Source: a virus. From it: a stretch of 64,000 nucleotides of DNA. Positions 17,961-56,332 of this stretch are shown here, piece after piece (the first letter of the stretch is position 1; every line of letters starts with the position of its first letter). The translations under genes were made by a program, and so were the position numbers. The stretch covers positions 11,971 through 75,970 of IMG/VR virus record IMGVR_UViG_3300037137_001673, one strand, 5' to 3'. The notes beneath the pieces were generated by a model, which was not told where the DNA came from, searched no databases, and was given only the letters and a program-made list of their open reading frames with translations.

Positions 17961-20900
17961 TGGTTTAGGAAAATTTCCATTTAAAAGTTCTTGGTTTACT
18001 ACTACCGAAATAATTAATGATGATGATTTTTGCGATATAGATCATCCATTAAAAAATATATTACAGACCTTCCTATTTGGTGCAGAGGCTGTATATAAAA
18101 CTTATAATGCTACTGGAAGTTCTGTTACTTCTGGACTTGCTACTACTTCTGTAGATACTAAAAACTTTATATATAATGCTACTGGAAGTTCATCAACCTC
18201 TGGTTCTGCAGATAAATATCGCTGGTCTAATTATACAGGATCAGGAACTGCAACTACTTCTGGACTTGCTACTACTTCTAAAACTACAAATACAAAAGAA
18301 ACTATCTCTACTTTAAAAGCTAAAGGCGTTCTTTTTGGAACATTAGCTTCTACTCAAAAAAGTGTTACTCTTAACCAAGTTACAATACTTACAGGTAAAG
18401 GAAAACTTTACGAACCTACCGTAAAAGTTAATTACAGCTACAACGCAACTGGAAGAGTTAATACTTCTGGATTTGCTAATAAAGTTGGTACTTGGCAAGT
18501 TGCCTATTTACCAAGAAATTTCTTCCCTATTTATATTCCTAGAAATTATTTTACAGATATTTATGAAAGACTTTGTTTTGGATTTGGTTCTATAATTACT
18601 TCTGGAATTGCTACTACTTCTAAAACTGATGCTGCTGCTTCTAATTTCACTTATAACGCCACTGGAAGTTCATCAACCTCTGGTTCTGCAGATAAATATC
18701 GCTGGTCTAATTATACAGGATCAGGAACTGCAACTACTTCTGGTTCAGCAGATAAATATCGCTGGTCTAATTATACTGGAAGTGGAACTGTAACTACTTC
18801 TGGGCTTGCTACTACTCAAAGAGATTTTACTTATAATCCAACTGGAACTGCAACTACTTCTGGACTTGCTACTACTTCTATAGGAACAAAGAATTTTATT
18901 TATAACGCTACTGGAAGTTCATCAACTTCTGGTTCTGCAGATAAATATCGCTGGTCTAATTATACTGGAAGTGGAACTGTAACTACTTCTGGATTTACTA
19001 CTACTCAAAGAGATTTTACTTATAACGCTACTGGAACTGCAACTACTTCTGGTTCTGCAGATAAATATCGCTGGTCTAATTATACAGGATCAGGAACTGC
19101 AACTACTTCTGGTTCAGCAGATAAATATCGCTGGTCTAATTATACTGGAAGTGGAACTGTAACTACTTCTGGACTTGCTACTACTTCTGCAGATACAAAG
19201 AATTTCATTTATAACGCTACTGGAACTGCAACTACTTCTGGACTTGCTACTACTGAAGGTGCCACTACTCTTTCATATTTTGGCTATCAGGATGGAACAG
19301 ATCAATTATCCATAGGAGCAGCACTTGCTAGAAAAGGAGCAGGATATGTTTGTCCTGGAACTGGATCGCAAGCAGTAAAAGAACTTTCTGTGCAAATTAT
19401 TTCTGGAACTACTAATATTAGATTAGGTATTTATAATGTAGCTGGAAATCTTATTTTACAGACTTCTAAAAAATCAACTACTGGACCTGGTTGGCTATCT
19501 TGGAATGAAAATGAATTAACTTGGTTTATTCAATCAACTATAATTGGTGGAACTACTTATAAACTTGCAATTGCTAATGATGAAACTTTTGTTATTGCTG
19601 GAAACTCAAGTGCGGGAACACTAAATTATAATTTAGGAGATTATACAGCAGCTCTACCAGATCCAGAACCAGCTAGTAGTACTACTGGAGGTGAATATAA
19701 TATAAAGTGTGGAGTTACTTCTACTGATTATACAATGGCTTGTGCTGGTTCTGGAACTGCAACTACTTCTGGGCTTGCTACTACTTCTGTAGATACAAAG
19801 AATTTCATTTATAACGCCACTGGAAGTTCTGTTACTTCTGGACTTGCTACTACTTCTGTAGATACTAAAAACTTTATATATAATGCTACTGGAAGTTCAT
19901 CAACCTCTGGTTCTGCAGATAAATATCGCTGGTCTAATTATACAGGATCAGGAACTGCAACTACTTCTGGACTTGGTTCTGTTTCATTAGATACTAAGAA
20001 TTTTACTTATAATGCAACTGGAAGTTCAACTACTTCTGGTTCTGCAGATAAATATCGCTGGTCTAATTATACAGGATCAGGAACTGCAACTACTTCTGGA
20101 CTTGCTACTACTGAAGGTGCGATTTATACCAAAACTTACGATCCAATTGGAAGTTCAACTACCTCTGGACTTGCTACTACTTCTGTAGATACAAAGAATT
20201 TCATTTATAATGCTGTTGGAAGTTCATCAACTTCTGGTTCTGCAGATAAATATCGCTGGTCTAATTATACTGGAAGTGGAACTGTAACTACTTCTGGATT
20301 TACTACTACTCAAAGAGATTTTACTTATAACGCTACTGGAAGTTCATCAACTTCTGGACTTGCTACTACTTCTGTAGATACTAAAAACTTTATTTATAAC
20401 GCTACTGGAACTGCAACTACTTCTGGTTCTGCAGATAAATATCGCTGGTCTAATTATACTGGAAGTGGAACTGCAACTACTTCTGGGCTTGGTTCTGTTT
20501 CATTAGATACTAAGAATTTTACTTATAATGCAACTGGAAGTTCAACTACTTCTAAATTTGCTCCTACTTCATTAGATACTAAAAACTTTATTTATAATGC
20601 TACTGGAAGTTCTGTTACTTCTGGGCTTGCCACTACTTCTATAGGAACAAAGAATTTTATATATAATGCTACTGGAAGTTCATCAACTTCTGGTACTGCA
20701 GATAAATACCATTGGTCTAATTATACAGGTTCTGGAACTGTAACTACTTCTGGTAGTGCTGATTATATAGGTCCAGCTAGAATTTATAATACTACTGGAG
20801 GAATATTAACTTCTGGAACTGCTAATTATGTAGTACCAAAATTTATATTTATAGCAACAGCACAGGGAGTTGTCGATGAATATACTACTACAGTAGATTG

Positions 20901-23900
20901 TTCTACTACTTTAAATATTCAGGAAGGTGATTTACTTGTAGCGACAAGTAGGTGGTATCCATCTACCTTATGGTCATCAGTTGCAGAAATTGGAGGTGCT
21001 AATAATTTCACATTGCTAATATTGCTTAATAATGGAGCTAGCAATCATTACGAACAGATTGGTTATAAAATTGCTGCTACTGCCAATGTTGCCGCTACAA
21101 TTAGAGCAACTTGGAACGCGAATACTTTTTGGAAAAATTTAATTGTTTTTCAGTTTAGACCTGCCCCTGGTTATTCAGTTTCTCTAGATCAAAATGTTAG
21201 CACTGCAAATGATGGATTGACTTGGCAAACACCAAATATTACAACTACCGACTTAGATGAAGTAGTATGTGCGATGGTTGCTCATTACCCATATGAGAAT
21301 TATCCACCTGTTCAAATTGCTGGTACTAATGCCGATCTTTATGTAAATGGTCCTTCTGGTGCTTTTGGTTTAAGCCAATTAAGTTATAGCATCTTTACTA
21401 GTATACAAACTGACATTTATGCTACTGGAACTTTCTCTTATCAGACAGATTTGTGGGGTTGCCAGATAATATCATTTAAGGCACTAGCAGAACATATCTA
21501 CAATCCTACTGGAATTGTAAATACTTCTGGACTTGCTACTACTGTAGGAAATACAAACCCTGTATATATTGCTAATGGAATTGTAAATACTTCTGGACTT
21601 GCTACTACTGAAGAATTTAATGCTTATGTTTATAACGCAACTGGAAGTGTAAATACTACTGGTTTTGCCTCGTTTAGTAGAGATACTATTTACAATGCAA
21701 TTGGAACAGTAAATACTTCTGGATTTGCTATAACTATAGGTTCTATAGCTGGTATATGGAATGCTACAGGAACTGTAAATACTTCTGGATTTGCTACAAC
21801 TGAAGAACTTGATGCTTATATTTGCAATCCAGTAGGAAGTGTAAATACTTCTGGAACTGCACAAATTACTCATAGTAATTACATTTATAATCCTACTGGA
21901 AGCATAATAACTTCTGGATTTGCCTTAGTTTCATCTGTTAGTGTTCCTTTTAGAATGCCTGATTTGATAGGTAAAGGAATTCTTTTTGGAGCACCAGCAA
22001 CTAAAAATAGTGTTACTCTTAATCAAAATACTGCTTTTAAAAGTATAGGAAAAATTTATACTCCTACAGTAGTTATTTATCCTACTCGTATTTATATAGC
22101 AAGAGGTGGAGTTGCTACTTCTGGTATTGCTCGCGTTAATTTTAGAAATTACACTTACAACGCAACTGGAAGTGTAAATACTTCTGGTGTTGCTAGAACT
22201 ATTTTTAAAAATTTTATTTACAATGGAACTGGAAGAGTAAATACTTCTGGTTTTGCTCTAACTATTGGTGCCTATAAACCAATTGGTTACTGGCCTATTT
22301 ACTACTGGGCAATTTACTGGCCTATACATTACTGGCCTGATTCAATGCCTACTGCTAATTATGTTTATGGCGCATTAGGAATTGTAAATACTTCTGGTGT
22401 TGCTGAAACAATTGGTCCTGTTGTTAAAACTTACAGTGCAACTGGAAGAATAAATACTTCTGGTTTTGCTACCACACAACAAGGTTATATCTATAATCCT
22501 ACTGGAAGAGTAAATACTTCTGGTTTTGCAGCAGGAATTATTTTTAATAACTATCAAAATGTCTTTAATGGAACTGGAAGGATAAGTACTTCTGGATTTG
22601 CTTTAACTATAGCAGTTAATGCTCCTTTTAAATTAACTACTTTAATAGGTAAGGGAATTCTTTTTGGAACTTTAGCTGGCACTGATATTTATCTAAAATC
22701 AAATGCAGCATTAAAGAGTTTTGGAAAACTTTACTCACCTATAGTTACTATTACCGCTACAGGTTATACTTATAATCCTACTGGAAGAGTTTTTACTTCT
22801 GGATTTGCTACAACTATAACTTCTGGTTATTCCAAGACTTACAATCCAACAGGAAGGGTATTAACTTCTAAATTTGCTCCTACTTCTGTAGATACTAAAA
22901 ACTTTATTTATAATGCTACTGGAAGTTCATCAACTTCTGGACTAGCAACTACTTTTGTATCTAAAGATTTTATTTATAATGCTACTGGAAGAGTTAATAC
23001 TTCTGGACTAGCAACTACTTTTGTATCTAAAGATTTTATTTATAATGCTATTGGAATTGTAAATACTTCTGGATTTGCCACAATTTTGTTAAGCACTAGA
23101 TACTTTATTTATAGTGCAGAAGTAGCAATTGTTATTACTTCTGGCTTTGCTACAACTTTATTAGTTACAAAAAATTTTGTTTATAATACTTCTGGAACTA
23201 TTTTAACTTCTGGGTTTGCTTCTACAATTGGAAATATAACTGCCACTTATAATCCTACTGGAAGAATAAATACTTCTGGAATTGCTACAACTGTACTAGG
23301 CACTTCTAATCAAATTTATAATCCTACTGGAAGAATAAATACTTCTGGATTTGCTACTATACAACAAGGTTATATTTATAATGTAACTGGAAGAATAAAT
23401 ACTTCTGGATTTGCTACTACTTTATTAAATACTTTGACTCCAGTTTATAACACTACTGGAAGTGTATTAACTTCTGGATTTGCTATAACTTCGTTAAGTA
23501 CAAGAAATTTCACGTATAATACTACTGGAAGAATAAATACTTCTGGAATTGCTACAACTGTACTAGGCACTTCTAATCAAATTTATAATCCTACTGGAAA
23601 AATAAATACTTCTGGACTTGCTACTACTTTAATAAGTTATAAGAACTTTATTTATAACGCAACTGGAATTATAAATACTTCTGGACTTGCTACAACTAAT
23701 AAAAATATTTATTCTCAATCTTATAATGCAACTGGAAGGGTAAATACTTCTGGTTTTGCCCTCGCTTTTGAATTTAATAATTATACTTACGAACCAAAAG
23801 GAAGTTCCACTACTTCTGGATTTGCTAGAACTTTAATAAATGCAAAGAACTTTATTTACAACGCAACTGGAAATATAAATACTTCTGGAACTCTTACTTT

Positions 23901-35110: not shown

Positions 35111-36262
35111 TTACACTCTTACCATTGCTTTTTGTGGAAAATTCAAAATTAAGGATTTGGTAATCCTTTTAGGTAATTCTCTTTTAAGTTCTTTTACTAG
35201 AAGTTTCTTATTTACAGGAATTTTTGTAATAGTAGAATCAATTTCGCTTGCTAAATCTTTTATAGAAATTTTTACGAGCATTGAAAGAATTTTGTAAATG
35301 TTTGATTCAGTCATTTGGATATTTTTTATATCCAATTCATGCTTCCAGTAAATTGTCCTTGCTTCCGTGCAAAACTTATCTAAAATACTTCCGGCTATAG
35401 TATATACTAAAACATCACTATTCTTATAAATGAAAGAAGTTTCTTTCTTAATTGAATTTGATGAATTAAAAATTCTTTTTTCTACAAAGGGAGAGTTAGT
35501 TACTTTAGCAATTAATCTTGAGGAATATTCTGAGTCTTCAATAAAAGGTCTTATAATAATTCCCTCCATTAATTGTCCTGGAAGTTCAGAAGTCATAGAA
35601 ACTGCATTTGCTAGTTTTTTAATTTCTTCTTCATCAAAATTTATTAATTTAATCAATGGAACATGAAGAAGTTCAACAGATTCCATTAAATTAGAAAAAT
35701 CATCCCAGCACATCCAGTTTTCATTAAGAAAGATGTCATGAAAATAAATTGCTTTTGAACTGGAAGATTTAAAATAAGAAATCTCTTTAGAAATTTCATT
35801 GTTTATAAGTTCTCCAAATAAACAAAATGGGACAGAAATTTTTTCTGCTAACTTAATAAATTCATCCTTGTAATTTACAAGTGATTTTATCATAAATTGA
35901 CTTTCCAAATCATCTTTTAAGTTTCCCCAACGATTTCCAAATTTATAAGTTTTTCCATCGAACATTACACGAATACTTAAGCCACGTAATTTTTCTAATA
36001 CTACAATGGCTCGTTTATCAAATTTTTCACAAAGTTCATCATTTAGTTCTTCCACTCTTGCTATAGCTTTATCATTGGATTTATTTGTAAAACCAGTCTC
36101 CCAACCATTTCTTCTACAATAACCTTCATAATAATCATCATCGTAGTTATATGGATAATTATTTGGGTTAGTTACTGTTGTAGCTGGGACATTTTGTGTT
36201 TGTATTTGATTAATTGGTTCAGGCATTTGTTTTCTTTTTTTAAAAAATCTTCGTGTAGTCAT
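35111..36262 (-). CDS. RNA ligase, Rnl2-like nucleotidyltransferase
   Basis: Motif I EKLRG, III LFGEL, IIIa YFHDI, IV MEGIIIRP, V IAKV. Confidence 0.75.
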   Translation of the reverse strand: MTTRRFFKKRKQMPEPINQIQTQNVPATTVTNPNNYPYNYDDDYYEGYCRRNGWETGFTNKSNDKAIARVEELNDELCEKFDKRAIVVLEKLRGLSIRVMFDGKTYKFGNRWGNLKDDLESQFMIKSLVNYKDEFIKLAEKISVPFCLFGELINNEISKEISYFKSSSSKAIYFHDIFLNENWMCWDDFSNLMESVELLHVPLIKLINFDEEEIKKLANAVSMTSELPGQLMEGIIIRPFIEDSEYSSRLIAKVTNSPFVEKRIFNSSNSIKKETSFIYKNSDVLVYTIAGSILDKFCTEARTIYWKHELDIKNIQMTESNIYKILSMLVKISIKDLASEIDSTITKIPVNKKLLVKELKRELPKRITKSLILNFPQKAMVRV

Positions 36263-36854: not shown

Positions 36855-36926
36855 AAGGGCTAGGGAAGGTTGAACTCCGCATCTAAACCTTGAAAGGGTT
36901 TTGACCTACCTTTAGTCGATAGCCCC
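36855..36926 (-). tRNA. tRNA-Glu(TTC)
   Basis: Cloverleaf; anticodon arm AAACC-CTTTCAA-GGTTT; weak T stem. Confidence 0.8.
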
Positions 36927-41012: not shown

Positions 41013-42959
41013 TTATAGTAGCATTCTTTCACAATTATAAATATAGTTCCCATTTTTATAAGAGAACCAAACTACTTCTTCATACCAATCTTCCCAGTTT
41101 AACCACCTAATTTTAGAGCAGAGAATTTTATATTGAACCTCTTTTTCCACTAGCTCAATTTCAATTCCTCTCAAAATTGCTTGGTAACACTCCCATATAT
41201 TATAACTTAAATTTAAATTCTTGTCAAATCCTTGAAATGGTAGTTTTAAAAGAGTTTTATTTAATAATAAACTTTCGTGAAGTAGTTTTTCAAAACCAAA
41301 AGTATCTATTTTTGTTAAATAATCTGTAAGTATCTTTTCTGCTTCTACATAAAACTCATTTAATCTATTACTTTTAATTATGTCAATAAATTTATATTCA
41401 TCAGTAGGCCACCAGATATTTAACCATTCTTTTGATTCACAATGAGGAATTTCTCCATTTTGTGTTTCCAATGCTTTTTTAGTAAAAAAAGAAATTATTT
41501 CTTCAAAAATTCCTGTAGATTTATTTTCAGTAAAAATTTCAGCTAATTTTCTAAAACTTATTCCATAAAATTTATTTAGAATAACAAATGGAATTTGTAG
41601 AAGTTTATTAAAGTGTAAAAGAGAAATTACCCAAGCAAAAACTTTTGCCTTTATCCAGTCTTCTCTAGTTAAAGTATTTGTTGATGTTACTACTAATTCA
41701 TTTTCAAAAACTTCTTCTACAGAAAGACTTCCGTGCCGATTAACAAGTTTCTTTTCCATTATATCAAAACTATATTTTTCTTGATATTCAATTCTTCCCA
41801 TTTCAGCATTAGGGAGAATATTTAAATCTGAAAAAGTAATTCTGTTATGTTGTCCGTTTTCTATTATTTCTGAAATTCCATTTACATAAGAATCGTAAGT
41901 TTCTTCTGGCAGTCCTAAAATAATGTCTGTAAAAGCATCCACTCCAATGTTAGTTAATTTCTGTTTTACTTCTTTGAAGTGATTAATTTTCATATTTATT
42001 CTTTTTATTGCTTTTAAGGTATCTTCATTTGTAGATTGAAGGGAAAGAGAAATTGTAGTATTTAATCCAGCTTCTGCTAATAATTTGTAAGTATTATAAG
42101 TGTGTTCCTTAAAGTTTTTAGTGCTTTGAACTGATATTCCTTCTGGATAACCAAACTTTATTTTATTATCTGCTACAAATTTAATAATTTCATAATCTCT
42201 TTCCAGCATTCCAAAATTAGAATCACAGCAAGTTATAAACTCAATTTTATTATTCTTGAACCATTCTACTTCTTTATAAAGTCTTTCCATGCCAAAAGTA
42301 AAAACTCTATTTTGTGTGGCAGAACCCCAGTCACAATAAGTGCAAGAAAAAGGACAACCTCTATTGGTTTCCCAAAGAGCAATCCAATTTACTTTTGGAT
42401 TTGCTTTTATTAGTGGCTGGAAGATTTCTTCTAAAAATGGAGATGGAATACTATTTATTTCAAAAATTCTTGGAGGGTATTGAGAAAGTATTACTTCATT
42501 GTTTTTGTCTAAATAATTTATTCCGGAAATTTCTCTCCAGTTACGATTAAAAAGATTTTTTAAAATTAAAGTAAAAGTTATTTCTCCATTACCAAGACAA
42601 GCCAAATTAACTTGAGGATTTTCTCTTAAAAATTTTTCTACTTTATCACAAGAAATTCCTGGTCCACCAAAAACGGTTATTACATTAGAATCTCTTTTTT
42701 TTAATAGTCTTGCTATTTCTAAAGAAATTCTTGTATTCCAAGTGTATAAACTAAAAAAAATTATCTCTGCACCAGATAATTCTCTTACTGCTTCTTTTAA
42801 TGGAATTCTTTTATAGATTGGCAAAAGAAATTCAAAATCACTTACATTATCTAAATACTTTTCAGCATATGCTTGTAATAATCCTAACGAATATGGCAAA
42901 TACTCTTGATTAAAAAAAGAAGTATTTATCTGAACCATTCCTACTTTAATTTTTTGCAT
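41013..42959 (-). CDS. cobalamin-binding radical SAM enzyme
   Basis: N-terminal B12-binding domain (LPYSLG, SLYTWN, FGGP, GNGE); ETNRGCPFSCTYCDW CxxxCxxC; DIILGLPEET. Confidence 0.9.
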   Translation of the reverse strand: MQKIKVGMVQINTSFFNQEYLPYSLGLLQAYAEKYLDNVSDFEFLLPIYKRIPLKEAVRELSGAEIIFFSLYTWNTRISLEIARLLKKRDSNVITVFGGPGISCDKVEKFLRENPQVNLACLGNGEITFTLILKNLFNRNWREISGINYLDKNNEVILSQYPPRIFEINSIPSPFLEEIFQPLIKANPKVNWIALWETNRGCPFSCTYCDWGSATQNRVFTFGMERLYKEVEWFKNNKIEFITCCDSNFGMLERDYEIIKFVADNKIKFGYPEGISVQSTKNFKEHTYNTYKLLAEAGLNTTISLSLQSTNEDTLKAIKRINMKINHFKEVKQKLTNIGVDAFTDIILGLPEETYDSYVNGISEIIENGQHNRITFSDLNILPNAEMGRIEYQEKYSFDIMEKKLVNRHGSLSVEEVFENELVVTSTNTLTREDWIKAKVFAWVISLLHFNKLLQIPFVILNKFYGISFRKLAEIFTENKSTGIFEEIISFFTKKALETQNGEIPHCESKEWLNIWWPTDEYKFIDIIKSNRLNEFYVEAEKILTDYLTKIDTFGFEKLLHESLLLNKTLLKLPFQGFDKNLNLSYNIWECYQAILRGIEIELVEKEVQYKILCSKIRWLNWEDWYEEVVWFSYKNGNYIYNCERMLL

Positions 42960-46857: not shown

Positions 46858-47118
46858 TTAGAAAATTCCCTGTTGAATGAAGTATCTAAACAATCTGCCA
46901 CGACTTTTAATCCATTCAATAGAAATTCCAATTGCTGATTTTAGTCCTTTAGGTTTGCCTATTTCTGTATCTTGGAAATCATAAGCAGCTGGACACATAT
47001 CGCAAGGTTTTTCATTAATTTCACCATACCCAGCATTGCAGCAATTGTTTTTACATTTCCAGCATACAACCATCCAAGTTTTACAAAGTAAACAGTATTC
47101 CCATTTGTATGGGTTCAC
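46858..47118 (-). CDS. Cys-rich hypothetical protein
   Basis: CLLC, CWKC, CCN, CDMC. Confidence 0.6.
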   Translation of the reverse strand: MNPYKWEYCLLCKTWMVVCWKCKNNCCNAGYGEINEKPCDMCPAAYDFQDTEIGKPKGLKSAIGISIEWIKSRGRLFRYFIQQGIF

Positions 47119-47510
47119 AGCAGTTTCAATTCTCCTGTTATTGCATCTATTTTTTCTTCTTCATCTGGACCTATTGCTATACAAGTATTTGTAGGCATTC
47201 CATGAAATTCTGTAAGCCCGTTATCTTTAATAAGAGCATTAGGAATTTTTGCTTCAAAAGCTTTTTTCTGTATTTCTAGAAGTTCTTCTTCGCTATTAAC
47301 ACCAACTACAATTTTAGTAAAAGAACCATCTCCATAATTCATCCATTTAATCATGGGTTCAGGTATATTAAATATTTCAAATCTGTCATGGTCAGTCCAT
47401 TCTGCCATATCGAAAAACACTTTCATTGAGGCATGAGCTACCTGTGCGGCAAGTTTTCCTTTCCGCATATTTAAATCTTTACGAACTACTATTACTTGTT
47501 TTACGCTCAT
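47115..47510 (-). CDS. pth2: peptidyl-tRNA hydrolase, Pth2 type
   Basis: KQVIVVRKDLNMRKGKLAAQVAHAS, KIVV, IKDNGLTEF, TCIAIGP, ITGELKLL. Confidence 0.95.
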   Translation of the reverse strand: MSVKQVIVVRKDLNMRKGKLAAQVAHASMKVFFDMAEWTDHDRFEIFNIPEPMIKWMNYGDGSFTKIVVGVNSEEELLEIQKKAFEAKIPNALIKDNGLTEFHGMPTNTCIAIGPDEEEKIDAITGELKLL

Positions 47511-47778: not shown

Positions 47779-47782
47779 TATT

Positions 47783-47860
47783 CTCCGGCGGCTGGACTCG
47801 GACCAGCGACCCTTTGTTTAACAGACAAACGCTTTTATCTACCATCTGAGCTACGCCGGA
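47783..47860 (-). tRNA. tRNA-Asn(GTT)
   Basis: TTTGT-CTGTTAA-ACAAA; enlarged D loop. Confidence 0.85.
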
Positions 47861-47871
47861 AAGTTTTCAAT

Positions 47872-47952
47872 AGCTAATAGTAGGATTTGAACCCACGGTG
47901 TTTGTATTCTTGCTTACAAAGCAAGCCCATTCGACCACTCTGGCATATTAGC
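47872..47952 (-). tRNA. tRNA-Thr(TGT), long variable region
   Basis: CTTGC-TTTGTAA-GCAAG. Confidence 0.8.
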
Positions 47953-50314: not shown

Positions 50315-50449
50315 ACGAAAATGCGAAGAGAAACGACCGTATCAAGAGAGCATCGAACGAAGTAACCGCATCAATTACAGCGCCTAGCTCTTGGTGGATT
50401 CTCAATTAATGAACGCCTTACGGCAGGTCATTCTAAAAAAGAGAGAGAA

Positions 50450-50950
50450 AAAAATGGGTAGGATTAACATTTACCTACAAAGTAGATTCACTTTCAGATT
50501 ATTCAGCCACTACACCCACTCCTCCGTCGAGAAGGGGCTTGTATGTAGGAAGGATTGAGTACCTTCAAGTCAGGCAGTGAGTAGTGCCATTATAATGGCT
50601 CAGGGATTTCTGCCCTTCTCCTTACTAGTTGTGCGAACCCCAAGGGTTGTACGACCCCCAACTAGCTTTCGTGCTTTATCTGCGCAGCGAACTTCTAGCT
50701 CTCACCAGTTCTTCACTGACAAGACGCCTTATCCACCTCAATGGATTGTTCGGCAACCAAATTTTTCTCTCAAATTTAAAAGAACTATACAACTATTGCC
50801 CTTTAGACAATAGAAGATCTGTTCCCACACATGGTGGGTCAGGTTTTAATCGTTCTGACTTTCGCACAGAACTGGGCGACTGCGTCTCTACCGCAATTTT
50901 AACCTTAAAGTAGTTTCACCACCATCTAGGCTGTCCACTACTAAAATTAC
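50450..50950 (-). ncRNA. putative large structured RNA region
   Basis: No credible ORF, GC-richer, many hairpins, boxA-like GTTCTTTTAAA at ~50775-50785, upstream promoter at ~51045-51074. Confidence 0.5.
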
Positions 50951-51070
50951 AAAATAAAGGAACAAGGATTTGAAAGACGAGATGCCCGAAGGCGATAACA
51001 TTTACAGTGTTGATAACGCCTTTTCATTCAGTTCCTTATATTATTATCTTATCACAATGATTGAAAATTG

Positions 51071-51442: not shown

Positions 51443-51454
51443 ACATTCTCCTTA

Positions 51455-51530
51455 TAGGGCTTATCAGATTTGAACTGATGATTTTAAGATTGAAAATCTT
51501 ACGTCCTAGACCAAGCTAGACGAAAGCCCC
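51455..51530 (-). tRNA. tRNA-Glu(TTC)
   Basis: TAAGA-TTTTCAA-TCTTA. Confidence 0.9.
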
Positions 51531-51684
51531 ATGTTCGATATAAATAGATTGGATGACATATTGCCAGTCGACGGGCAGTTAGTCAGTTGCCCAATCACCT
51601 TCTGTGGAATAGTCCCGTTAAGCCATATAGACCTTGACTATCAGGTATTAGAACTATCGTCCTAATTTTAGCCGTCGCACATAT

Positions 51685-51786
51685 ACGTTCTTAAGGAATC
51701 GAACCGAAATTTCCTAGCTGAGTGGCTAGGCGTCCTGAAATTTCCAGACGAATGTCCTTTGATTTACTCCATTAGACGAAGAACGC
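51685..51786 (-). ncRNA. tRNA-like RNA with duplicated D arm
   Basis: GCGTTCT/AGAACGT acceptor, TTCGATT loop, two GTC..GAC arms, non-7-nt anticodon loop. Confidence 0.6.
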
Positions 51787-51790
51787 TCGA

Positions 51791-51905
51791 TGGAAACGGT
51801 AGGGGTTGAACCTACATTTACTCAGTGGATACTGTCGCTCACACTTTTCTTTACTGCCCTGAATTCTTGTTTTAGATCTAAACTTAATTCATTTCAGTCG
51901 TTTCC
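51791..51905 (-). ncRNA. tRNA-like RNA (acceptor plus T arm, replaced core)
   Basis: GGAAACG/CGTTTCC-A, GTAGG-TTCAACC-CCTAC. Confidence 0.6.
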
Positions 51906-52141
51906 GTTAAAAGAGAGAATACTTATAGGGGCTTAACCTATCATACATCTACTTTAATAGCTACAGAAAAGTAGGTATTCTCTCTTTACTTTTTATTATA
52001 TCACAATTTTTGTTTTTCGTCAAATTAAAAACACTGCCGACAATCACCCAAAAGTTAATTTAGTGGAGGTTTGACCGCCGACCTAAGATTATTGGGACAC
52101 GGGATGAGACTCCATTAACGATTAAACGACTGGCAGCAGTT

Positions 52142-52360
52142 TTATTTTATTACTACCTTTACTTCTGGATGCTGTGCTTCATATTCATGAGCTAGGCGTT
52201 CTCCATGTTCTTCTGTATTTGCCCTAGCTACATCAAAACCCATTCCATGGTTTAAGCCATTACACGGGCACGAACAATCTTCTCCTTTTGCGTTATAGCA
52301 ACGAGCATCACAGCGTCCTATCATTTTCTTATCTGTATTATAGATTGCTATTAAAGTCAT
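52142..52360 (-). CDS. Cys/His-rich metal-binding protein
   Basis: RCDARCYNAKGEDCSCPCNGLNHG. Confidence 0.7.
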   Translation of the reverse strand: MTLIAIYNTDKKMIGRCDARCYNAKGEDCSCPCNGLNHGMGFDVARANTEEHGERLAHEYEAQHPEVKVVIK

Positions 52361-52536
52361 TTCTTTTTCCTTATAACACTATTATAAAACATTTTTTGAT
52401 TTTTGTAAATTATTCTTTTCTTATATTTCTGTAGTTTAATGAATCCATTTTATATTTACATTTAGGGCAAACATAAATCATTTTTGGAGTTTCTTTCATC
52501 AAAGTTCCACAAATAGGGCAAATAACATCTTTCATT

Positions 52537-53235
52537 TTATTCCTCCAGCTTTACATATGTCTCATAGATACAACTAAATTCTTTTGGTAGTTCAAAAGGT
52601 AAAGTATCAAAGTGATAATGAGCGAAATACCAGTGTTTGAATTCAGTATTATTCTTTATCTCTTCTAAATAATTTGGTAAATCATAACCTGAATTTTTTA
52701 GAGAACCATGAGATTTTTTTCTTAACATAGCATCCACTATTGAAAATGGACCTTCATGTGTAAGAATATAATCTACTTTCTTTCCAGCTTTTTCCAGATT
52801 ATCCAAACCATTTTTGTATTCTTTGAAATTAGGAAGTTCTTGTTCCCACCAACTAATATGAGAAACTCTAAACATTTTATCAATAGAAATTCCACCACCA
52901 AAGACAAAAAACTTTTTATCTTCGATAGTATAAATATTCCCACGACGAAGATGAAAAACATTATCAGTTACTACACCAACTTCATCGCCATATTTTTCAA
53001 TGGTTCCAAGTCTGTCAATGCGGTCAAAGTTTTCATGATTTCCATCTAGCCAGAGAATATTATGTCCTTTATTTTTAGCAATTTCTAATTGCTTTTTTTC
53101 ATTTTCTTCATAAGTTTTTTGCTGGTTCCAAAGCACACCAAAATCTCCAAGAATGATAATTACATCACCTTTCTTGGAGGGAATTTTATTGAGTCCTTCT
53201 AGTCGTCCGTGACAATCGCCAATTAAGAATACCAT
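52537..53235 (-). CDS. calcineurin-like metallophosphoesterase
   Basis: GDCHG, LGDFG, DGNHE, THEGP, AHYH. Confidence 0.9.
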   Translation of the reverse strand: MVFLIGDCHGRLEGLNKIPSKKGDVIIILGDFGVLWNQQKTYEENEKKQLEIAKNKGHNILWLDGNHENFDRIDRLGTIEKYGDEVGVVTDNVFHLRRGNIYTIEDKKFFVFGGGISIDKMFRVSHISWWEQELPNFKEYKNGLDNLEKAGKKVDYILTHEGPFSIVDAMLRKKSHGSLKNSGYDLPNYLEEIKNNTEFKHWYFAHYHFDTLPFELPKEFSCIYETYVKLEE

Positions 53236-53345
53236 ATAATGATTATATCACAATTTTCAATTTTTGTAAATAACTATTCACAAAAACCGCCCTTCAGCCA
53301 CACAGATTTTAGACATAAAAAAAGTGTCCTTCCGGACACTTGTTC

Positions 53346-53825
53346 TTACTTAGGAACATTACCTATAGAACTATGTAACTGTAAAGTGATTTTATCTATA
53401 GCACCTTCTCCCCAAAGAGATGTTACCCTGTAAGAGTACTGATATATATTTTGTGGATGAGTACATTCATGTTGATATATAATTTTGAAGATTCCAAATT
53501 GAATTCCTGTCTCAATTATATAATTTGTAAAAGTAGGATTCCAACTGGCAATACTTCCCTGCCAAGGTTCAATTTGAGTAGTAATGGAAGCGCCTAGAAA
53601 AACGTGCTCAAAAAACCAAACATCAAAACCTAGAAGTGTATAAAATGATTTCATAGGTTTCGAAGGGTAATCTAATTTTACGTTGTAAGTATTTACAGAA
53701 GTCCATCCACCAAACTGCGAACTGGCCCATCCTACATCAACGTAGTAGTCAAGTCCAATCCAGTCTTGTGCCGTTGCTGTAAAAGCAATAAGCGAAAATG
53801 CCAATACCAAAAAAATCTTTTTCAA
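53346..53825 (-). CDS. exported beta-strand-rich protein, possible small outer-membrane barrel
   Basis: Signal peptide ending ATA-Q, amphipathic aromatic strands, HECTHP. Confidence 0.55.
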   Translation of the reverse strand: MKKIFLVLAFSLIAFTATAQDWIGLDYYVDVGWASSQFGGWTSVNTYNVKLDYPSKPMKSFYTLLGFDVWFFEHVFLGASITTQIEPWQGSIASWNPTFTNYIIETGIQFGIFKIIYQHECTHPQNIYQYSYRVTSLWGEGAIDKITLQLHSSIGNVPK

Positions 53826-53826
53826 G

Positions 53827-54096
53827 TTATTCTCCTATTTCTAGAGTTGTGAATTGGAAATCATAACCAATGCTGAGACAATCCCAAGTCTTATGATTTT
53901 TCTCATTAATATAAGGTTCCCAACCATCATCGGAGTTTTTTGCTTTCCTTTTCTTGGCATCTTTTTTCATCCACTCAAAAGCACCTTCATAGGTTTTAAA
54001 CCACTTAATGTCAATCGTGGTAGTATATTCACTTCCCATTGGGCCACCCAAATGAGATAAATCCTCAACTTCAACTTTCCAAAGTTTCTCTTTCAT
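53827..54096 (-). CDS. hypothetical protein
   Basis: 89 aa with promoter and SD. Confidence 0.65.
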   Translation of the reverse strand: MKEKLWKVEVEDLSHLGGPMGSEYTTTIDIKWFKTYEGAFEWMKKDAKKRKAKNSDDGWEPYINEKNHKTWDCLSIGYDFQFTTLEIGE

Positions 54097-54170
54097 AAAG
54101 TTTTCTCCCTTGTATATATTATATCACATATATCGTTTTTTGTAAAGCAAAAAAATAAGGCATTTCTGCC

Positions 54171-54401
54171 TTACTTCATACGAGCTTTGTATTTTTTTCC
54201 GTAAAACTTTCCCCAGTTTTCCCAATCTCCCTTTTTGTAAAAAAGGCACTTGAAATCAGAAATGTCATAAGATTCAAAAATCTTTTTGTAGGATTTTCCA
54301 TTGGGAAGTTCAGGAGTTCTGCGAACTTTCTTATTCGCAAGTTTCTTGAAGTAAGGATTTCTGTCACAAAATCCAATAGCGTGTTTGAAACTATGAGACA
54401 T
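54171..54401 (-). CDS. small basic phage protein
   Basis: MSHSFK...KKLANKKVRR...NGKSYKK...YDI.D. Confidence 0.7.
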   Translation of the reverse strand: MSHSFKHAIGFCDRNPYFKKLANKKVRRTPELPNGKSYKKIFESYDISDFKCLFYKKGDWENWGKFYGKKYKARMK

Positions 54402-54416
54402 GTTTAAGCTCCTTTA

Positions 54417-54492
54417 TAGTCCTTATCAGATTTGAACTGATGATTTCAAGTTTGAGAAACTTGCGTCCTAGACCAAACTAAACGAAAGGACT
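54417..54492 (-). tRNA. tRNA-Glu(CTC)
   Basis: CAAGT-TTCTCAA-ACTTG; body similar to 51455. Confidence 0.9.
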
Positions 54493-54681
54493 AAAATTGG
54501 TGGGTTTCGTACCACCCGAGTTTCCAACGAACCTTCTCTTACGCCACCGATGCTATTAATAGTGCCGCCTACAAAGTCAGCCTTCGGTAGAAGAGTTTCA
54601 TTTGTAGTGATTCAGTCAGGCGTAATTATTAATTTAGGGAATACGAAATCAGTTGGCTGAAAAACCAATCCGTTACCCTTT

Positions 54682-54867
54682 TTATTTTTCTTTTAAAGGA
54701 CAACAATCAGGAAAGATTACTTCTTTATTTTTTTGCTTCATCCAGATGAAAGATTTTAATTTCGTGCAGTAATCATCAACGTCACCATGAGAATTCGCAG
54801 GACAAGAAAAGCAATCCTTTACTTCATGAACTAGCGTTAATTGACGCGCTTTGAAATTTAGCGCCAT
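54682..54867 (-). CDS. small Cys-rich protein
   Basis: Start moved to MALNFK behind AAGGAG; CFSCP...C...FPDCCPL. Confidence 0.65.
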   Translation of the reverse strand: MALNFKARQLTLVHEVKDCFSCPANSHGDVDDYCTKLKSFIWMKQKNKEVIFPDCCPLKEK

Positions 54868-54889
54868 TTGAAGCTCCTTTCTTTTTTTG

Positions 54890-54962
54890 TGGAGATGATA
54901 GGAATTGAACCTACACCATTTTGCTTGCGAAGCAAATGCTCTACCAATCGAGCTACATCCCC
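54890..54962 (-). tRNA. tRNA-Ala(CGC)
   Basis: TTTGC-TTCGCAA-GCAAA; G3:U70. Confidence 0.9.
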
Positions 54963-55314
54963 ATAAGTAGGATTGGATAGGGTTACAGGACATGCCACTC
55001 ACCACTGTTCTACTCGATATGTAGATTACCAATCCTAGAGGACTTACGCCCTCTTTGCGATTTTTTCCTTGTGAAGCTTCTTGTAGAGGCGATTGGTTTT
55101 CCAAGCCTTCTTTCGAAGCTCGCTCTTTGCGTTTCCAGAAATCAATTTACCTTTCAATTTTTTCTCCTTGCTTTATTATATCACAATTTTCAATTTTTGG
55201 CAAGTTTCATCTGGGAATAAGATTGCTTCATCAGTATTTACTTTTACCTTTTCAGTAGATACTTTTGCTTTTTTTACCTCTTTTATATATTGCGTAATGC
55301 TATATATTGTCCGT

Positions 55315-55527
55315 TCAATCTCCATCTTTTTCGCAACCTATTAGTTCATATTCAAATAGACCTAGAATAGGTTCAACAGTTACTTTCCCATAGACAAGTC
55401 TCTGCTTGCTATAGCCTAGCAAAAGTTTTCCATTGAAAGTTTCTTCCTCAATGGGAACATCTGTATAGACATTGAAGCAAGGAACATCTTCTTCCTTGTA
55501 AATAAATGTTTGAGGATTATAGTTCAT
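55315..55527 (-). CDS. hypothetical protein
   Basis: Start moved to MNYNPQ behind AAGGAG. Confidence 0.6.
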   Translation of the reverse strand: MNYNPQTFIYKEEDVPCFNVYTDVPIEEETFNGKLLLGYSKQRLVYGKVTVEPILGLFEYELIGCEKDGD

Positions 55528-55550
55528 GATTGCTCCTTTATTTAAAACTT

Positions 55551-55637
55551 CGGAAAGGAGAGGATTTGAACCTCCGGTGGTTTTATCCACACTACATTTC
55601 CAATGTAGCGCACTAGACCAAACTATGCGACCTTTCC
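55551..55637 (-). tRNA. tRNA-Ser(GGA)
   Basis: CTACA-TTGGAAA-TGTAG, long variable arm. Confidence 0.9.
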
Positions 55638-55641
55638 ACTT

Positions 55642-55714
55642 TGTTCCCAGCGGGGCACGATCCCACAATAAAAGTTTAGGAAACTTTTGGTTTATCCAAT
55701 TAGCCTACGGGAAC
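55642..55714 (-). tRNA. tRNA-Arg(CCT)
   Basis: AAAGT-TTCCTAA-ACTTT. Confidence 0.85.
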
Positions 55715-55716
55715 TA

Positions 55717-55835
55717 GAGCAAGGAGTAGGAATTGAACCTACGGCTCGTGGCTATTCTGCCCTCACGGTGCTACTCTCTAACCCAACGGCGAAGGGTTCT
55801 CGCTGGTATTCATTTCCAGTTGCATTATCCTTGCT
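55717..55835 (-). ncRNA. tRNA-like RNA with two extra hairpins in the D arm
   Basis: AGCAAGGA/TCCTTGCT acceptor, GTAGG-TTCAATT-CCTAC T arm. Confidence 0.65.
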
Positions 55836-55843
55836 TTTATAAC

Positions 55844-56332
55844 TTATATTATATCTTTCAAAACTTCTTCGATACTACCAACATCGTGTTTGGTAATCAC
55901 TACTTTTTCAGCAGATGGTCCAGTGATAGGAGTTACTTTCCAACTGGTTTTTACCCCAAGCCCAGCACGAACAGCATCTGCGGTGAATTTATACTTTCCA
56001 CCACTTCCCAGCTGACCGATTACAGAATACTTGCGACCCTTTGGAGCAATCGCTACGATTTTGTAAGTCTTTCCAGCCACGATAGTCATTTTGCCGAACA
56101 TATCTTTTGTAAGTCCAAATTTTCCGCAATAGGCATCCCACTCTGCTTTATCGGCATCTTCTGTCGAACCAGTAGCATCTAGAAACCTTCCTTTTGTAGA
56201 AAAAGTGAAATACAAGTCAGTATAGGAGACACCTCCCATTTTGAAACTGACACCATGCTTTACACCTACCGAAGCAAGAGCAATGGCAACATCACGACTG
56301 ATTTCTCTCAACTTCTCACTTGTTCCGTTCAT
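55844..56332 (-). CDS. hypothetical phage protein
   Basis: 162 aa, overlaps the upstream ORF by ATGA. Confidence 0.7.
   Translation of the reverse strand: MNGTSEKLREISRDVAIALASVGVKHGVSFKMGGVSYTDLYFTFSTKGRFLDATGSTEDADKAEWDAYCGKFGLTKDMFGKMTIVAGKTYKIVAIAPKGRKYSVIGQLGSGGKYKFTADAVRAGLGVKTSWKVTPITGPSAEKVVITKHDVGSIEEVLKDII

Follow-up and report, generated by a model that had tools for sequence, protein, structure and literature searches.

The stretch of DNA analysed here (the window) covers 64 kb of IMGVR_UViG_3300037137_001673, a virus record of 75,970 bp whose source is sediment metagenomes. Its GC content is 33.5%, and among its genes are those for a tail sheath and for other parts of a myovirus. 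We consider it to be a fragment of a myovirus. (The CheckV completeness of relatives of 16-39 kb, at 11-17%, suggests that the phage's genome is larger than 200 kb.) On the minus strand, from 36.8 to 58.6 kb, the window carries an array of 31 ordinary tRNA genes, of which 30 were called by ARAGORN and one was found by Rfam only. Three more elements with tRNA-like features, which we call c1, c2, and c3, lie within this array. A first-pass annotation had picked them out as a family of tRNA mimics, and we found all three on the minus strand where it had put them, with c3 beginning and ending one base inside its claimed ends:

51685-51786, minus strand: c1, a 102-nt paralogue of tRNA-Glu(CUC) whose D arm is tandemly duplicated
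51791-51905, minus strand: c2, a 115-nt tRNA-shaped RNA gene with discriminator A
55718-55834, minus strand: c3, a 117-nt tRNA-shaped RNA gene with discriminator U

Two of these elements, c2 and c3, have an intact 12-bp acceptor-T minihelix and lack a decoding module. In c2, the acceptor strands GGAAACG and CGUUUCC form 7/7 Watson-Crick pairs and stack without a gap on a T stem with 5/5 pairs (GUAGG-UUCAACC-CCUAC), which carries a canonical T loop (UUCAACC). As the first-pass annotation had noticed, these perfect arms surround a foreign core. The core is 83 nt long and is predicted to fold into a four-way junction, with a long hairpin on the D side that extends from the acceptor (nt 8-53) and a second hairpin (nt 61-82). 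(The predicted fold has a minimum free energy, or MFE, of -28.4 kcal/mol and z = -3.5.) There is no anticodon loop in c2. The acceptor of c3 also has 7/7 pairs (GCAAGGA/UCCUUGC), and its T arm (GUAGG-UUCAAUU-CCUAC) has 5/5. It keeps U8, a 3-bp D stem, the A14 that starts the D loop, G18, and G19. The D loop carries an insert of about 44 nt, which can fold into the two extra hairpins that had been proposed (CUGG/CCAG and AACCC/GGGUU) or into one alternative hairpin. The anticodon-like arm of c3 is bulged, also as described before; the bulge has 3 nt, and the arm ends in a 6-nt loop. The variable loop of c3 has 4 nt.

The third element, c1, can be aligned with both of the array's Glu tRNAs, starting at the second copy of its D arm. 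The duplication of a Glu-type D arm is real (UUCGUCU..AGGAC occurs twice in tandem), and so is the odd loop: at the anticodon position c1 has CCACUCAG, which is 8 nt long and contains CUC. The acceptor has 7 bp, including G1-U, but the T stem pairs at just 3/5 positions, with two mismatches, so the T arm is not intact as had been claimed. Judged by the elements of a canonical tRNA top half (a 7-bp acceptor, a contiguous 5-bp T stem, and a UUCRANN-type loop), c2 and c3 have 12/12 pairs, while c1 has the acceptor only.

We then asked if any of these elements could be a tRNA that decodes. None of the three has an anticodon stem of 5 bp that closes a loop of 7 nt (U33, an anticodon, and purine 37), and ARAGORN called 0/3 of them, even with the intron option. 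Neither c1 nor c2 had any match in Rfam at E values up to 10. For c3, the score with the Rfam tRNA model (RF00005) was 25.8 bits, which is below the curated cut-off of 29 bits. Deleting single blocks from the elements and rerunning ARAGORN (1,442 deletions per element) recovered 0 tRNAs from c1, c2, or c3, while the control elements L004a, L039, and L079 gave 227-402 hits in the same series. Double-block deletions, with tens of thousands of pairs, also gave 0 tRNAs from c2 and c3. In c1, the double deletions did recover a tRNA-Glu(CUC), but only after the loss of nt 15-41 and one nucleotide of the loop. These results support the first-pass annotation's view that the elements do not decode. As no deletion of one or two blocks restores a tRNA, we rejected the idea that c2 and c3 are tRNAs with an intron or an insert. 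Because the controls can be restored by deletion and c2 and c3 cannot, these two are not recently damaged versions of a tRNA whose parent can be identified. Indeed, we found no parent tRNA above background for c2 or c3. For c1, the parent is recognisable (Glu-CUC) and the lesions are disabling, as is expected for a tRNA pseudogene.

The intact arms are not easily explained by chance. A strict scan of the 64-kb window for an acceptor and a T arm that are 95-160 nt apart gave c2 and c3 as the only new hits, and random sequence of the same composition is expected to give 0.34 hits on average. Also, both c2 and c3 are on the strand of the array, with gaps of 3-4 nt to the next gene, a placement that we infer cuts the chance expectation about a thousand-fold.

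To see how the elements evolve, we used L044, a 2.5-kb metagenome contig that is about 11% diverged from the window. (Its phosphoesterase is 88% identical to the window's. Scans that were anchored on the phosphoesterase gave this one useful relative, from metagenomes; from genomes, they gave only matches at 45% identity or less.) In L044, as in the window, the order is promoter, c2, c1. The homologue of c2 (L044:2280-2394) has substitutions at 13/115 positions, and all six helices are kept. The acceptor pair 3:70 is A-U in the window and G-C in L044, which is a compensatory double change, and pair 6:67 is C-G in the window and a U-G wobble in L044. The T stem is identical, and the inner hairpin re-registers and keeps 4-5 pairs. 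We compared this to a neutral simulation that placed 13 substitutions in c2 at random, using the transition bias that we had observed. In 15% of trials, none of the 12 pairs of the acceptor and T stems was broken; unbroken pairs together with one or more compensatory double changes were seen in 1.7% (P = 0.017).

Rates of divergence point the same way: c2 and nt 1-75 of c1 evolve at a slower rate than 4-fold degenerate sites do. In three ORFs that are orthologous between the window and L044, such sites have a divergence of 0.179 (26/145), which we used as the reference. The divergence of c2 is 0.113 (P = 0.037 versus 4-fold sites), and the divergence of c1 nt 1-75, which includes both copies of the D arm, is 0.068 (P = 0.005). 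The upstream intergenic DNA has a divergence of 0.16 (P = 0.38). The copy of c1 in L044 has a 7-nt loop, CCCUCAG, and the 5' side of its T arm differs at 5/12 positions; the contig ends there. In the window, c1 is probably a copy, now damaged, of an odd Glu paralogue that is conserved.

The genes and signals around the elements also bear on how they might be made. Next to c2 and c1 we found:

51995-52023, minus strand: a sigma-70-type promoter, TTGACG-17-TATAAT with a TG extension (11/12 match), which precedes c2, c1, and tRNA-Glu(UUC)
51908-51985, minus strand: a leader hairpin of 77 nt, which separates the promoter from c2; this is an indel and is absent from L044
51532-51684, minus strand: a 153-nt spacer from c1 to tRNA-Glu(UUC), which varies between strains
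51454-51531, minus strand: tRNA-Glu(UUC), an ordinary tRNA (ARAGORN) and the last gene of the c2-c1 unit

And next to c3:

55844-56332, minus strand: an ORF of 162 amino acids with no family assigned, which ends 9 nt ahead of c3
55550-55714, minus strand: tRNA-Arg(CCU) and tRNA-Ser(GGA), which begin 3 nt past c3

L044 has kept the promoter of c2, and there the -10 box is followed by c2 after about 10 nt. Since the promoter is directly ahead of c2, without a leader in L044, c2 is predicted to be the first product of a dedicated unit comprising c2, c1, and tRNA-Glu(UUC). Given its close spacing, c3 is presumably co-transcribed with tRNA-Arg(CCU) and tRNA-Ser(GGA). (The 162-aa ORF on its other side has zero relatives among viral contigs.) The acceptor-T minihelix, with its T loop, is the module that is recognised by RNase P, by the enzymes that trim 3' ends, by the CCA-adding enzyme, and by further proteins with an affinity for the ends of tRNAs. 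As this 12-bp minihelix is intact in c2 and c3, both RNAs would be processed by these enzymes. None of the array's genes encodes its CCA, and 6/30 genes, c3 included, have CUA directly after the discriminator, a higher number than expected by chance. (The CUA trailer that follows U73 of c3 is also found in Thr, Gly, and Cys tRNAs.) We also observed that nt 7-21 of c3, AUAAUGCAACUGGAA (55814-55828, minus strand), match exactly, with the same sense, a 15-mer that is repeated (20009-20023, 20525-20539, and 23723-23737, plus strand) in the gene for a 2249-aa repeat protein. This identity is probably due to chance.

The first-pass annotation called the elements a family, and as a statement about homology this did not hold. 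The similarity between the cores of c2 and c3 is marginal (z = 2.3, P = 0.026), and with a covariance model built on c2, a dozen ordinary tRNAs outscore c3 (14.3 bits). We therefore rejected a single homologous family for c2 and c3. Instead, c1, c2, and c3 appear, from their sequences, to be independent derivatives of tRNAs that have an architecture in common.

We also considered other kinds of RNA. A tmRNA should have a G3:U70 pair, a reading frame for the tag, pseudoknots, and a length above 250 nt. We rejected this class: ARAGORN reports no tmRNA, pair 3:70 is A-U in c2 and in c3, and they are 115-117 nt long. The model for YrlA-type Y RNAs (RF02553) has no match on c1, c2, or c3, so we rejected that class too. 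(A lone weak match to RF02553, with 21.2 bits versus 69, sits on Lys and Thr tRNAs.) Other Rfam families were rejected with zero matches to c1-c3. Coding on either strand was rejected as well: the antisense ORF over c2 has 48 codons and is interrupted by a stop codon in L044. Finally, we looked for antisense targets in the phage genome and found no complementarity of at least 12 nt to c1, c2, or c3; the sole match of 15 nt, from c3 nt 7-21 to the repeat-protein gene, is not in the antisense direction.

The rest of the array provides the context for these elements. Its tRNAs are interleaved with small ORFs, so that ORFs and tRNAs alternate throughout, and it includes genes for homing endonucleases of the GIY-YIG/NUMOD3, HNH, and PD-(D/E)XK types. 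Near-consensus sigma-70 promoters with the common core AAAATTGTGATATAAT are scattered through it. A canonical tRNA-Glu(CUC) is present at 54416-54493 (ARAGORN). Several protein-coding genes in or beside the array are of interest:

35111-36262: an RNA ligase, at the edge of the array
41013-42959: a radical-SAM/B12 protein, in the array
47115-47510: a PTH2 peptidyl-tRNA hydrolase, in the array, at a distance of 4-8 kb from c1-c3
52537-53235: a metallophosphoesterase, in the array

Together, these four genes could form a module for tRNA repair or modification. The genes for the RNA ligase, the phosphoesterase, and PTH2 indicate that the phage invests in the upkeep of tRNAs.

Other parts of the array are unusual in their own ways. 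The tRNA that was found by Rfam only (41 bits) is a third Glu-like tRNA, at 36855-36926 on the minus strand, with 4/5 pairs in its T stem. The tRNA-Asn and the tRNA-Thr(UGU) (47782-47861 and 47872-47952, both on the minus strand) have enlarged D and variable regions. A degenerate Tyr-like tRNA (50955-51040, minus strand) directly follows a promoter at 51074-51046; its acceptor has 7 bp, its anticodon loop (CUGUAAA) is intact, and UUCG caps its variable arm, but there is no T stem. Upstream of a tRNA-Met there is a long, ORF-poor, GC-richer stretch (50448-50784, minus strand) with a weak match to the Rfam manA-RNA model, at 21.9 bits versus a cut-off of 55.2.

Odd tRNA-like genes are also present in other phages. 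Three elements of 106-123 nt (L004:6832-6952, L039:2511-2633, and L079:10138-10243) become ARAGORN tRNAs once a single block of about 30-46 nt is deleted. These are interruptions like inserts or introns, and in L004 a Leu-type tRNA is interrupted in its anticodon loop. In the same phage, which is unrelated to ours, an element with an acceptor and a T arm around a non-tRNA core adjoins an odd tRNA (L004:6960-7108). The variable arm of a tRNA-Tyr-like gene at L052:8788-8895 is a perfect hairpin of 47 nt. And tandem pairs of 69-nt mini tRNA-likes, which ARAGORN missed, are found at L010:12094-12233 and L089:8094-8233.

What are c1, c2, and c3 for? Our preferred reading, to which we give about an even chance, is that they are maintained tRNA-shaped RNAs that are processed by RNase P and the CCA-adding enzyme, do not decode, and are analogous to RNA C of phage T4. 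It applies to the three elements in different degrees. We think that c2 is probably a maintained tRNA-shaped RNA, and that c3 plausibly is. For c1, the conservation of nt 1-75 suggests that it is kept as a non-decoding RNA in related strains. The proposed mechanism is that c2 and c3 would be transcribed together with their tRNA neighbours and cleaved at +1 by RNase P. The 3' end would be trimmed and CCA would be added, as for all of the array's CCA-less tRNAs. The RNAs would then accumulate as stable species of about 118 nt that never pair with a codon, and they would act through the acceptor end and the elbow, as competitors, decoys, or substrates of a protein that reads the top half of tRNAs. 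That c2 and c3 occupy such a protein, reading tRNA ends or the elbow, is speculative.

The strongest alternative is that c1-c3 are neutral debris, that is, tRNA pseudogenes or recombination products with no role. The intact stems would then be explained by recent origin, by gene conversion of the T arm, or by chance. A number of observations weigh against maintenance and in favour of this alternative. First, c1 differs from tRNA-Glu(CUC) by two lesions, its T stem is weak, and its 3' end differs between strains; the Tyr-like remnant described above shows that degenerate tRNAs do occur in this array, and the array's endonucleases (GIY-YIG/NUMOD3, HNH, and PD-(D/E)XK) promote rearrangement. Second, X4, another strain from a sequencing run whose ORFs are 5-6% diverged from the window's, has indels in c2: a 1-nt deletion in the 5' strand of the acceptor (at 51901) and an insertion in the core. 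X4 also has 50 nt in place of 191 nt (the 153-nt spacer and c1 nt 64-102, with the joint at 51532/51724). Third, the core of c3 does not have a well-defined fold (z of -1.8; MFE frequency of 3%). c3 is identical in X4, but the surrounding block (54658-55891) is nearly undiverged, ORFs included, so we rejected this identity as a sign of selection. Fourth, distant homologues were not found: exact-pattern scans for segments of c2 and c3 in 2.9 million viral contigs gave 0 matches, the c2 covariance model (R1) found no further homologue in 37 phage loci, and the relatives identified by the tail sheath are fragments with just 48-50% identity and without comparable elements. Fifth, there is only one informative relative, so every statistic rests on one pair of sequences, with P of about 0.02-0.04. 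Gene conversion is also possible, as the T-arm sequence GUAGGUUCAAnnCCUAC is common to several real tRNAs of the array.

But debris does not readily explain why c2 and c3, which lack a recognisable parent, have kept 12/12 pairs. A compensatory change maintains the stem of c2 across 11% divergence, and c2 and c1 nt 1-75 have diverged less than either 4-fold sites or the neighbouring intergenic DNA. A near-consensus promoter has been retained directly before c2. So we consider debris to be unlikely, although it is a serious contender. The first-pass annotation had argued that these elements are not simple decay. For c2, we find moderate support for this (from the compensatory change, the sub-neutral divergence, and the conserved promoter), and the conserved nt 1-75 of c1 agree with it. 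We find no such support for c3, whose only other copy lies in the nearly undiverged block of X4, and the 3' end of c1 is unstable between strains. Overall, what that annotation had observed was confirmed in part, and its interpretation is supported in part.

Another alternative is pure punctuation: the elements would be sites for RNase P and 3' processing that split polycistronic transcripts, and the excised RNA would be a by-product. Under this scenario, it makes sense that c3 is flanked by the 162-aa ORF, which ends 9 nt before it, and by tRNA-Arg, which begins 3 nt after it, that ORFs and tRNAs alternate across the array, and that the minihelix, which is the substrate of RNase P, is the only well-kept part. 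However, c2 is the first gene of its own unit, and in L044 it starts a few nucleotides past the predicted start site, so there is nothing to separate. Furthermore, the real tRNAs that flank these positions would already supply the cuts, and in c2 the helices of the core are preserved as well. We think that punctuation is quite improbable.

Least of all do we expect unconventional decoders or their precursors, whose inserts are removed like introns or whose odd loops decode (such as c1's 8-nt loop acting as a +1 frameshift suppressor, a type of tRNA in which 8-nt anticodon loops do occur): at L004:6832-6952 and L039:2511-2633, tRNAs turn canonical after one block is removed, and c1 has a 7-nt loop with CUC in L044, but no single or double deletion makes a tRNA out of c2 or c3, c1 has C33 or A33 in place of U33 along with the mismatched T stem, and the window already has a canonical tRNA-Glu(CUC).

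If c2 and c3 are maintained non-decoding RNAs, then they would have precedents. It has been known since the 1970s that phage tRNA clusters hold tRNA-like stable RNAs, namely RNA C and RNA D of T4. RNA C (species 1 RNA, or rnaC) is 139 nt long and, with RNA D, lies directly after tRNA-Arg in the T4 cluster. Like c2 and c1, RNAs C and D are inside a phage tRNA cluster and adjoin both tRNAs and each other, and their sizes (119-139 nt) are comparable to those of our elements. As in c2 and c3, rnaC has a canonical T arm (CCGGG-UUCGAAU-CCCGG) that is followed by an acceptor-type 3' strand. Two long hairpins replace its D and anticodon arms, an architecture that parallels c2 and c3. In other words, the traits of an RNA C-like gene are present here: a place in a tRNA cluster abutting tRNAs, a length of 115-140 nt, and a T arm and a closing stem around non-tRNA hairpins. 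There are also differences. The closing stem of rnaC is imperfect, versus 7/7 pairs in c2 and c3, and RNAs C and D were shown to accumulate, which c2 and c3 are only predicted to do. A search of the T4 locus with model R1 gave no match at E values up to 0.01, and Rfam has no family for rnaC or rnaD. The function of T4 RNA C is still unknown (PMC3014915, PMC9697503).

Three other groups are worth comparing. Mukai et al. (2017) described polycistrons of irregular tRNAs and inactive allo-tRNAs, some of which are charged yet unused in translation (PMC5389517). (The tRNA-Other of Bacillus cereus, which that paper cites, belongs to the same comparison.) Like c2 and c3, irregular tRNAs are tRNA-shaped and encoded in clusters, and they have been proposed to be regulatory RNAs (PMC5389517). 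But as described, they keep the anticodon arm, and either their acceptor/T geometry is 8/4 or 9/3 or they have an extra loop. The geometry of c2 and c3 is the standard 7/5, and both lack an anticodon loop. Ordinary tRNA pseudogenes resemble c1 in being near their parent (two lesions), with a decayed T stem and a 3' end that is unstable between strains; c2 and c3 differ from them in having no identifiable parent, and c2 also shows stem-preserving evolution. Finally, YrlA-type Y RNAs (RF02553) and mascRNA-type elements are non-decoding RNAs with a tRNA-like module that is read by tRNA enzymes, as we propose for our elements. In c2 and c3, unlike Y RNAs, the 5' and 3' ends form the acceptor stem of a tRNA and not a Ro-binding stem, and we saw no Ro or Rsr gene among the ORFs that we scanned.

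The first-pass annotation had suggested that the elements could be decoys, aminoacyl donors, or Y-RNA-like tethers. A more specific proposal is that RNAs like c2 and c3 are purpose-built decoys of the top half of tRNAs. With a CCA end but barred from translation, they would soak up host immune effectors that attack or modify acceptor ends. Phage tRNAs do counter tRNA-directed defences (PMC10264068, PMC11455837). Only effectors that are directed at the acceptor end, such as pyrophosphokinases of the CCA end, nucleotidyltransferase toxins, or acceptor-stem nucleases, could be countered by a decoy that lacks the anticodon loop. If this proposal is true, then c2 and c3 would form a tRNA-protection module with the RNA ligase, the phosphoesterase, and PTH2. 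We consider it doubtful, with a low probability.

By themselves, c1, c2, and c3 add little mechanistic information. But across unrelated examples, the acceptor/T minihelix is kept and the anticodon is dropped, which suggests that top-half tRNA mimics are a recurrent and selected class and not junk. One example with both stem-preserving evolution and its own promoter backs this view. If it is true, then it would point to an interaction between phages and their hosts that is centred on the ends of tRNAs, by way of processing, charging, or defence.

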